A stretch of DNA of 64,000 nt from Escherichia coli (GTDB taxonomy: Bacteria > Pseudomonadota > Gammaproteobacteria > Enterobacterales > Enterobacteriaceae). The stretch is from the NCBI RefSeq assembly GCF_048403405.1, contig NZ_CP183129.1. One strand, 5' to 3'. This document shows, piece after piece, positions 1 to 3,000 of this stretch. Position 1 is the stretch's first letter. The number at the start of each line of letters is the position of its first letter. Made by a program: the position numbers.

Positions 1-3000
1 TCAGATCAGCGACGCTGCCCTCCAGTTTTTCAATGGGCGATTCAATATCATCTTTTTCTGACCGCAATGCCGTCGGTGGCGTCTTCAGAGAACCAGTAAT
101 TCTTCCCGGTAGCTTTCCTTTGTAGGTTATCCACACATTCTGCGCCTCTAAAATTATGGGGCGCTTTTCCGGCGACTGCTCATCCCCTTCACATAACCCG
201 GCTGCAACTTCCAGGAAGACCTGTCTGATGCTCCTTCTGGCTGCTGCCTCATAAAACTCCAGCGCGGCACCTTCAACACGGTCCAGCGAGATGTCCAGGT
301 CAAAAATTTCACCGTCAAAGCGTTTTTTGTCCCTTAATGCTACAGTTACCGCAACTTTATTCTCAAAATTGCGGATCCCTTTCACAATCAGTTCATAGTT
401 TTGTGTCATTGAATTACTCTCCCCGTGCAACCTTACGCTTGTCTTCTTTAATCTTGAAATAAAGGTTTGTCAGGTACGTCAGCAAGCCAAATACCAGACT
501 ACCCAGCACACCGATTGCAGCCCACTGTGACGGAGTTACTTTATCGAGTAACTGCAATGCCCAGAAACCAGCATTACCAGCCGATGTGCCATAGGCGATA
601 CCTGTTGTTAACTTATCCATTGATTTCATATCCTCACCCCGATGTACACAGATGGTGCAATATGTTTGAAAAGATCGGAGTCTATGGGGTAGTTTTTATA
701 GCAAACGTTGTTCTCAACGGCGCTAAAAAACAGACACATTAAAAATGTGGGTAATTATTTTAAAAGAAAATCATATGTTAAATAATAATACGAGATATGT
801 TTTCATATTTAGTGTACTGTATACGGCCATTTATACAGGAAAAGCCTATGTCAGAACGTAAAGACTCAAAATCACGCCGTAATTATCTCGTTAAATGTTC
901 CTGCCCAAACTGCACCCAAGAGTCAGAACACAGTTTTTCAAGAATACAAAAAGGTGCCCTTTTGATCTGCCCTCATTGCAACAAAGTATTCCAGACAAAT
1001 CTTAAAGCTGTAGCTTGATTGATTTTATTCGTAACAAGTATTTTTTATATTTTAATAACATATTTAAAGCAGATAATAAAAAACCCGCCTGAGCGGGTTT
1101 AATATTGTGGTACTTTTTGTGGGAGTCATCCACTTACGCACTTTGTTTTGCTATGCCAGCAGTTAGCTTCTGCTGTAAAACTATTCATGCAGCAAACCTG
1201 CACTTCACCACAATGGTTAGCATACTTTTCCTGATTAAGTTATTGCCAAATATGCTGGCCATTGTTTCATGTATTGGACCTCCTTACTATTTATTAAAGA
1301 GATCCAATATTCACCACTCTGTCTGTATCTCCACTCAGGCATCAGCCTTCTTCGTTATCGTATACAGACAAACTATGAATTTTAATCAGTAATTATGACA
1401 TTTGCTGCTGCAGGACCTTTAGCACCACTCTCTACAGAGAAGGTAACCTTTTGACCTTCAAATAAGGTTCGATAATTATCATTCTGAATCGCAGAAAAAT
1501 GCACAAACACATCTTTACTACCATCAACAGGAGAAATAAAGCCAAAACCTTTATCAGCGTTAAACCATTTTACTAAACCAGTCATTTTATTTGACATTCT
1601 ACATTCCTTAACTTGAGCCTTTCGGCATAAATGGCTTGTATAACAGAAACGACTTCGTACTTAATTGGAGAGACTCAAAGAAGGAATAAGTGAATAACAC
1701 CTGAAATGAGAACTGCTTTAGTAAACTACTTCGTATATCGTCTGTTCTTCAAACCGACGCAATCATTAACGCATAGTTGAACATATGAAGCAATGTTTAT
1801 TTTAGACATCCAGCCATCTTCAACCCCATCAAAAAACTATAGCTTTCTTCAGGAACGTGTGTATAGTGCGCCAAGTTATCAGTATTAAGGAATTTTTTGT
1901 CCCGTAAAATGACAGGAATTCTCAAAACCTTTGACGGCAAAAGCGGCAAAGGTCTTATAACCCCATCCGATGGTCGTATCGATGTCCAGCTTCATGTTTC
2001 AGCGCTCAATCTCCGCGATGCAGAAGAAATTACCACCGGATTACGCGTGGAATTTTGCCGGATAAATGGTCTGCGTGGACCATCAGCTGCCAATGTTTAC
2101 CTTTCATGAGCTATATTAAAGCTTTAACTTCAAGCCCCATCGAATCAAACATGGAGAGTTTTCATGAATAAACCCGTCTGTCTTGATGACTGGTTGATTG
2201 GCTTTAAAAGCTTATGCTGTACTTTGACCTTAATAGCTCTGCTAATAATGTAATAAGCAAACTCATTGTATCTATGGACATTGTACTGGAAGAAAACATT
2301 TTAAACATCAGGCAAAAAACAAAGTCACCCGATAAATAATAAGTAAACTAACATGAATCCCGTAATGAGATTCAACATCTCTATTACCCTATTTAAAGCA
2401 CAAAAACCCGCTCATCAGCGGGTTTTCTACTTTTTCTTAACTTCGGGTATACAAAGCCCATCGTTGAAAAAATTTTATCCATATTTTTTGAAAAATGCAA
2501 GCATCACGTCGCCATCTTCGGCGAAAATCACTTATCTCGTCACCTTTCTCAATTGTGCTTCAGCGTAAGATTCCTCCTGCCAGCACTTTGTAACCAGTTT
2601 ATCAATGACATTTGCATATCCTTTATACCACTGATAATCACTCAGGTCCGGTACCAGCTTCTGGACATGATACCGCGCCAGTGTGGTTGGTAAACGACTA
2701 AACCGTTTTCCATTGCAACGCCCACAAATCTTATAAACAGGTGTGCCATGAAGCCGGGTCCTTTTTTCATCCAGGACAATACCTTTACCCTTACACCCTC
2801 TGCACGCTGTGCTGACTTCTCCCTTACCATGGCAATGCTGACATAGTTCCTTCACCCACTCTTCTTTGATAACAGATTCCCCGCTTCTGGAGTGTTTCAC
2901 CACTTCGCGCAATACATTATGAAATCCAGTACCAGCACAATGCTCACAACGAGCCTTACTTGCCGCAGACCTGGAATAATCAGCAAAGGCAAAATTCACA

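Follow-up and report, generated by a model that had tools for sequence, protein, structure and literature searches.

The DNA described here is a stretch of 64,000 nucleotides from Escherichia coli (RefSeq assembly GCF_048403405.1, contig NZ_CP183129.1), hereafter the window, which carries a prophage located between prfC and yjjG. Near the first position of the window, on the minus strand, the gene for a Q-type antiterminator is followed by a predicted late promoter (pR'), a predicted pause element, an intrinsic terminator (tR'), an interval of cold-shock and small-protein genes and the holin gene essQ (Table 1). A late-gene cassette of this kind has been defined as the Q gene, PR', the pause element, the terminator and the late genes (PMC9388147), and we hold it very probable that the window contains such a cassette, of the Qin/SfV/Stx2c type of lambdoid prophages, followed by a cargo slot that is occupied here by cold-shock and small-protein genes.

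RefSeq annotates the identical stretch of strain EC28 with ydfT, a YnfS-like small open reading frame (ORF), cspF, cspB, ynfU and essQ, and Pfam concurs for each of them. Downstream of essQ the EC28 record continues on the same strand with a lysozyme gene, an Rz-like gene, cspI, the terminase and a full head-tail set. An initial annotation of the window had reported divergent cspB and cspF together with a 56-amino-acid (aa) zinc-ribbon ORF in the interval before the holin; all are present, and the zinc-ribbon ORF is the already named YnfU (PF23499). Much of what is seen at this locus was therefore already known: the genes are all named in E. coli K-12, the type of cassette is textbook material, the SfV terminator is marked in its record and the leader of P22 is equally short. 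What is added here is an explicit location of pR', of the pause element and of tR' in the present Q subfamily, cargo boundaries that are precise to the base, and a link to an unnamed RNA 3' end in K-12.

Table 1. Features of the proposed late-gene cassette and its cargo slot, in window coordinates (UTR, untranslated region; CDS, coding sequence).
Feature	Position	Strand	Basis
Q antiterminator gene (quuQ/ydfT type, 250 aa), Q-lambda family	2532..3284	-	ORF, Pfam PF03589, RefSeq
Predicted late promoter pR': -35 TTGCAT (2500-2495), 17-nt spacer, -10 TAAAAT (2477-2472)	2472..2500	-	Sequence, homology to lambda and P22 pR', conservation
Predicted transcription start (about 2465) and putative sigma70-dependent pause element AACGAT with GGG discriminator-like triplet	2457..2465	-	Identity to lambda +1..+9
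Predicted pR' leader RNA without Q, about 64-68 nt	2398..2465	-	Fold
tR' intrinsic terminator, core stem CCCGCU/AGCGGG (2422-2407), U-tract (2406-2402)	2402..2426	both	Folding, terminator scan
Exchangeable cargo (moron) slot, tR' to holin ribosome-binding site	642..2398		Homology breaks, GC
ynfS (29-aa small protein), antisense to late transcript; missed in the initial annotation	2164..2253	+	Pfam YnfS 1.2e-19, K-12 annotation
cspF (70 aa, cold-shock domain), antisense to late transcript	1897..2109	+	Pfam CSD 8.4e-21, RefSeq
cspB transcription unit: cspA-type thermoregulator 5' UTR (from about 1758), CDS (1597-1382), start of 3' UTR	1319..1758	-	Rfam, Pfam
Bidirectional intrinsic terminator between cspB and ynfU	1081..1100	both	Terminator scan
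ynfU (56-aa zinc-ribbon small protein), antisense to late transcript	848..1018	+	Pfam YnfU PF23499 6e-31, RefSeq
essQ, class II (phage 21 S-type) holin, first lysis gene	414..629	-	Pfam Phage_holin_2_1 1.1e-33, RefSeq

The Q antiterminator

In a profile search the protein encoded directly upstream of pR' matched Pfam Antiterm (PF03589) with an E-value of 3.8e-53, and it also matched the lambda Q structures 7UBM (1.7e-37) and 4MO1 in the PDB. PF03589 is the Q-lambda family (PMC9388147), to which these matches assign the protein. It shares 34.5% identity with lambda Q and 98% with the Q of the temperate phage SfV, and the RefSeq label in the EC28 stretch is 'ydfT antitermination protein'. Literature searches for quuQ/ydfT gave almost nothing specific, and a published comparison of pR' among Stx phages (PMC6266700) holds no detail on the present type of Q.

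Between residues about 113 and 200 this Q has four CxxCxGxG-like motifs (CEHCAGTG, CQHCHGKG, CRGCKGKG and CGRCNGKR), and the Pfam DnaJ_CXXCXGXG profile matches it just below threshold (31.2 bits, with the cutoff at 32.7). Compared with lambda Q, the protein has an insertion of about 39 aa (residues about 121-159), which carries two extra CxxC motifs and lies inside the zinc-ribbon arm, the part of Q that touches the Q-binding element and sigma region 4 (PMC9388147). The inserted residues suggest a longer, two-zinc arm.

Predicted late promoter and pause element

The -35 hexamer of pR' begins 31 nt past the Q stop codon, and the hexamers occupy both ends of the interval, 2472-2500, in which the initial annotation had placed a candidate pR'. 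Six bases beyond the -10 hexamer, at 2465-2457, stands AACGATGGG, which has the same letters as the start region of lambda pR' from +1 to +9. In lambda, AACGAT at +1 to +6 together with GGG is an experimentally defined -10-like sigma70 pause element (PMC4005639), at which sigma70 holds the polymerase at about +16, the state in which Q is loaded (PMC4005639, PMC9388147). By this identity a sigma-dependent pause element is predicted in the initially transcribed region of the window, and the start at about 2465 remains a prediction.

When compared with the sigma70 consensus, pR' agrees at 8 of 12 positions and its -35 hexamer at only 3 of 6, and a generic promoter scan did not list it; the evidence for this promoter is thus homology and conservation, and not a consensus score. 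The 17-nt spacer is identical to that of lambda at 11 of 17 positions by manual count, and some parts of it are invariant among relatives; it likely holds a candidate Q-binding element.

Terminator and leader RNA

The hairpin of tR' reads AAAACCCGCU-GAUG-AGCGGGUUUU at 2426-2403, followed by U2402. The terminator had initially been placed at 2408-2430, about 60 nt from pR', and both statements stand in substance: hairpin and U-tract were found at 2426-2402, the distance from the predicted start to the U-tract is about 64 nt, and that from the -10 hexamer to the stem is about 46-50 nt. With 2465 taken as +1, the core stem extends from +44 to +59 and release is expected at about +64 to +68. The 67-nt leader RNA folds with -21.5 kcal/mol (z = -4.2), and a generic scan of the region found 8 terminator-like sites against 1.9 expected in shuffled sequences. 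Since the complementary strand also folds into a terminator-like hairpin (z = -5.5), tR' appears to be bidirectional, and by this prediction it can also stop plus-strand transcripts of cspF and ynfS. An intrinsic terminator is therefore present between pR' and the late genes, and its short leader fits the mechanism of Q, because Q loads at about +16, the nascent RNA passes through the Q torus at 14-16 nt (PMC9388147), and the stem starts only at about +40.

In lambda, in P22 and in most relatives, base pairing is possible between AACGA at the very start of the leader and UCGUU or CGUU at about +19 to +27. This conserved 5' stem lies at 2439-2465 (minus strand) in the window, at 789-815 in the related locus L006 and at 1902-1928 in L088. 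In the leader of the window a C-to-A change weakens the AACGA pairing, and a GGGC.../...CCC pairing is used in its place.

Comparison with known late-gene systems

Lambda shares with the window the Q family (PF03589), a 17-nt spacer, a gap of 6 nt, AACGATGGG at +1 to +9 and an intrinsic terminator ahead of the lysis genes; it differs in the hexamers of pR', which are TTGACT and TAAATT in lambda and TTGCAT and TAAAAT in the window, and in the leader (6S RNA), which has 194 nt against about 65 nt here. In P22, where the corresponding parts are gene 23, P late, qut and t late, there is likewise an antiterminator of the Q-lambda family, the transcript starts with AACGATGG, and the leader is equally short: in the GenBank record P late and the qut site are annotated, the 5' nucleotide is put at 37887 and t late occupies 37917-37945, from which a leader of about 59 nt follows. 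The P22 antiterminator is 34% identical to the Q of the window, and the roughly 300 bp that separate t late from the holin gene in P22 contain no annotated gene. In phage mEp460, where the identity of Q is only 40%, AATGATGGG and a hairpin stand at the same distance as in the window, about 64 nt.

SfV and the Stx2c phages have the same Q allele, with an identity of 97.6-98%, and their unit of promoter, pause element and terminator is collinear with that of the window; the GenBank record of SfV annotates a terminator at the position of tR'. Their hairpin sequences differ from that of the window, as does their cargo, which is orf47 and a DNA methylase gene in SfV, with stx2c in addition in the Stx2c phages, and not a csp set. 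The description of the pR'-tR' unit as very short in the initial annotation thus holds when it is set against lambda (194 nt) and the Stx phages (258 nt); it does not hold within the Q-lambda branch, where P22 has about 59 nt and mEp460 about 64 nt, and a leader of this length is not unusual for the family.

Conservation of the unit among relatives

Relatives were defined as loci encoding a Q protein 97-100% identical to that of the window, and 84 such loci were gathered from viral contigs and phage records. The unit of pR', pause element and tR' is retained in 83 of them. Across 39 distinct variants the identity per column is 94% in the promoter, 92% in the discriminator and pause element, 82% in the leader and 51% after the U-tract. 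The hairpin is of another kind: at equal distance from the promoter there are about twenty distinct hairpin-region sequences with at least eight different stems, among them CCCGCU/AGCGGG, CCUCGC-UUCG-GCGGGG, ACCGC/GCGGU and CCUCGC/GCGAGG. Because the alignment does not keep the hairpin variants in register, covariation on one fixed structure was not used and each variant was folded by itself; stable folds with runs of U after them were seen in nearly all. Varied stems in the same place indicate selection for a terminator and not for a sequence.

The entire block from Q to the holin is found at a coverage of at least 80% in 1,602 of 5,426 complete E. coli genomes. The predicted late promoter, the pause element and the terminator placed here belong to a very common E. 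coli prophage module, a result with little import beyond annotation.

The cargo slot

Alignments of the window to loci with the same Q and other cargo break at 2399-2402, in the last bases of the U-tract, and among loci with the same type of holin homology returns at 641, 12 nt ahead of the holin ATG (629). The sequence from 642 to 2398 is therefore a cassette with base-precise ends. Its GC content is 0.35-0.39, against 0.46-0.57 in the flanks. Among relatives the slot is filled in at least twelve architectures, which include an orf47-like gene with an N6/N4 DNA methylase gene (as in SfV), an orf47-like gene with a DNA methylase gene and Stx2A (the latter confirmed by Pfam RIP), tRNA genes with STnc100, AgvB or isrJ RNAs, several ORFs of unknown function, and the csp set as in the window. 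Cargo of the csp type is itself modular, as one locus is without ynfS and cspF (2386-1836) and phage Tritos is without 2356-2100. With its own predicted promoter and terminator, sharp boundaries, deviant GC and presence or absence among relatives, the cargo of the window has the characters of a moron.

The initial annotation had compared the interval to the place where Stx phages carry their toxin genes. The comparison proves to be literal, because the same Q and the same pR'-tR' unit stand upstream of stx2c in Stx2c phages, where this unit controls the toxin gene.

Evidence from E. coli K-12

The Qin prophage of K-12 has a block that is 93.4% identical to the window over 3.4 kb, with the same gene order and orientation, ydfT(quuQ)-ynfS-cspF-cspB-ynfU-essQ, and it shares pR', AACGATGGG and the terminator stem. 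The two elements differ in that Qin, located at 1.63-1.65 Mb, is a defective remnant and has 4 U in its U-tract against 5 in the window, whereas the element of the window adjoins yjjG-rimI-holD-rsmC-tRNA-Leu and is a near-complete lambdoid prophage in strain EC28. The predicted start corresponds to K-12 position 1642422 (minus strand). A Term-seq 3' end has been recorded at 1642356 (minus strand) in the class 'orphan' (Adams et al. 2021, Supplementary file 1, PMC7815308), and it was seen in LB at an optical density (OD) of 0.4, in LB at an OD of 2.0 and in M63 glucose (PMC7815308). This end falls 8 nt past the tR' stem (...GCGGGUUUUGUGC) and, counted from the predicted start, would give an RNA of 67 nt that is made under ordinary growth. 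An unnamed short RNA in the 3'-end data of K-12 is thus given a plausible origin in pR'-tR'.

Proposed mechanism and alternative explanations

The features of the sequence, how well they are conserved, the borders of the cassette and the K-12 3' end at tR' lead us to infer promoter activity, a start site, pausing, dependence on Q and transcription of cspB together with the lysis genes, in the following way. In a lysogen pR' would fire, and the polymerase would pause at about +16 as sigma70 re-binds AACGAT(GGG). Without Q, transcription would stop at tR' and an RNA of about 64-68 nt would be released; cspB would be expressed separately by means of its own cold-shock promoter and thermoregulated 5' UTR, and the cspF-ynfS and ynfU transcripts of the opposite strand would be halted by the two bidirectional hairpins. 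Upon induction, Q would bind between the promoter hexamers and load on the paused polymerase, which would then become resistant to terminators. Such a polymerase would run past tR', antisense over ynfS and cspF, would copy the promoter region, UTR and CDS of cspB, and would then pass the terminator at 1081-1100, run antisense over ynfU and enter essQ 1,836 nt from the start, to continue through the rest of the lysis and structural genes.

If pR' is the late promoter, the path across cspF in antisense and into cspB and the holin gene is unavoidable by geometry. The claim of the initial annotation, that a Q-modified transcript traverses antisense cspF before it reaches cspB and the lysis genes, is in this respect sound as to gene order and geometry, and the co-transcription itself is a prediction. 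Were read-through by Q to occur in this way, cspB would be induced by prophage induction besides cold, and cspF, ynfS and ynfU would face antisense transcription.

The RNA released at tR' may have a role of its own, which would be compatible with the mechanism just described. In Stx1 and Stx2a phages, StxS is likewise an RNA from a constitutively active late promoter that is ended at tR' in lysogeny, although these phages belong to a clade with a Q of 144 aa, their PR'-tR' distance is 258 nt, and a 74-nt form arises through processing by RNase E (PMC7547250). By analogy, lysogens of the Qin type could use the pR' RNA of about 65 nt as a regulator associated with Hfq, a reading that has a precedent not only in StxS but also in the proposal that by-products of PR' evolve into small RNAs (sRNAs) (PMC7547250). 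The RNA appears to be constitutive in K-12, where its 3' end is seen in all three conditions, and its predicted fold has a hairpin at the 5' end, then a single-stranded, A-rich linker AAGAAAAAGUAGAAAA, then a terminator that ends in a U-tail; the linker would be the Hfq or target-binding surface if the RNA were regulatory, yet among relatives no other part of the unit is conserved so poorly (82%). The K-12 Hfq RIL-seq table of Bar et al. (2021) includes 'cspF.ydfT.IGR' as a node, but there its sRNA probability is very low (0.0024), it has only 2 partners and the strand is not given. Hfq binding and targets have been demonstrated for StxS (PMC7547250), whereas the RNA of the window is predicted from its sequence and the K-12 3' end. 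On this balance a regulatory function seems to us unlikely.

The short RNA matched no family in Rfam, and a permissive threshold gave only weak matches that were driven by the terminator. An identity with STnc100/PasD, prophage sRNAs that occur near Q genes of PF03589, was considered and rejected, as RF02076 has no match in window positions 600-2600 even at E <= 5; where STnc100 is present in other loci, it follows tRNA genes at a distance of 0.8-2 kb past pR'.

Several observations weigh against a functional late unit. The -35 hexamer of pR' agrees with the consensus at only the 3 of 6 positions mentioned above, and the putative Q-binding element matches the spacer of lambda at only 11 of 17. 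No coordinate in the supplements of Cappable-seq or SMRT-Cappable-seq matches the predicted start at K-12 1642422. On the minus strand of K-12 another 3' end, at 1642188, lies about 170 nt past tR' and is found in stationary phase only, so that some transcription passes tR', or begins beyond it, without known expression of Q. Lastly, Qin is cryptic in K-12, and function there hence proves little on the activity of Q.

The lack of a matching start in those supplements and the cryptic state of Qin would also agree with a fossil unit, in which pR' and Q no longer drive the late genes and the hairpin now serves only as the terminator of cspF and ynfS. The hairpin is a good terminator on the plus strand too, but it is kept together with Q in loci that are wholly without cspF and ynfS, and at the tR' site K-12 has a Term-seq 3' end on the minus strand only. 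The Q ORF, moreover, is intact and, as noted, almost identical to that of SfV, and the EC28 prophage looks near-complete, so we regard this explanation as very unlikely. That the lysis genes have their own holin-proximal promoter, for instance TTAACA-16-AATAAT at 781-754 (minus strand), and that cspB stands outside the late transcript is scarcely credible, since this site, even as the top score of the promoter scan (10 of 12 matches), is one of 9 promoter-like sites against 7.9 expected in shuffled sequences, lies inside the AT-rich cargo while conserved DNA linked to the holin begins only at 641, is lacking in loci with the same holin and other cargo, and may serve the divergent promoter region of ynfU. 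A conserved promoter owned by the holin at 781-754 was accordingly rejected, the DNA being part of the cargo and not of the holin-linked block.

Genes in and after the slot

The protein encoded by cspB matches Pfam CSD at 1.1e-31, and Rfam RF01766, the cspA thermoregulator, matches 1758-1319 (minus strand) with 156.7 bits against a gathering score of 78, over model positions 1-428, that is, at full length. Because the model matches end to end, cspB appears to retain a cspA-like 5' UTR of about 160 nt, and a promoter, TTGCTT-17-GTTAAT, was read by eye directly upstream of 1758. By these matches cspB is a CspA-family cold-shock gene with a predicted thermoregulated 5' UTR, and under the late-cassette reading it would be under dual control, since its own cold-shock promoter and 5' UTR are kept. 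In K-12 a minus-strand 3' end at 1641634, inside the cspB 5' UTR, was flagged as Rho-dependent by its authors (PMC7815308).

In the 3' UTR of cspB (window 1235-1300, minus strand) there is a hairpin, UUGGAUCUCUU...AAGGAGGUCCAA, with a perfect Shine-Dalgarno sequence TAAGGAGGT, and 8 nt past the latter stands the ATG of an 11-codon ORF (1270-1235, MKQWPAYLAIT). The strongest K-12 Term-seq 3' end of the region, at 1641224-1641226 (minus strand), is just beyond that ATG and not at the canonical terminator downstream. On the plus strand, a K-12 Term-seq 3' end at 1641060 coincides with the hairpin between cspB and ynfU, where it serves ynfU.

The YnfS protein has been detected (PMC6001520). The K-12 3' end at 1642188 corresponds to about 2232 in the window (minus strand), where it is antisense to ynfS and follows a small hairpin, CUGCU...AGCAG. 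In some relatives cspF is absent or truncated. When window positions 1-2200 are taken together with the EC28 record to their left, cold-related genes are unusually many along the late operon, namely cspB, cspF, cspI, ymcF, gnsB and ydfK.

Other features of the window

In the early region, near genes of the ash family and with KilA-N, a C4 antisense RNA (82.8 bits) is found next to an isrK Hfq-binding RNA (55.4 bits) at 8464-8652 (minus strand), both above the gathering score of Rfam. The pair resembles an antirepressor control module like those of P1 and Gifsy, here within a lambdoid prophage.

An ORF of 239 aa at 14598-15317 (minus strand), beside the integrase gene (15603-16826, minus strand), has no match in Pfam or PADLOC. 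It occupies the place of an annotated anti-phage dCTP deaminase in the otherwise collinear EC28 prophage, and it may stand in a slot for defence genes. Past the integrase end of the prophage, in host DNA, three tandem tRNA genes (tRNA-Leu in EC28) are located at 20065-20382 on the plus strand.

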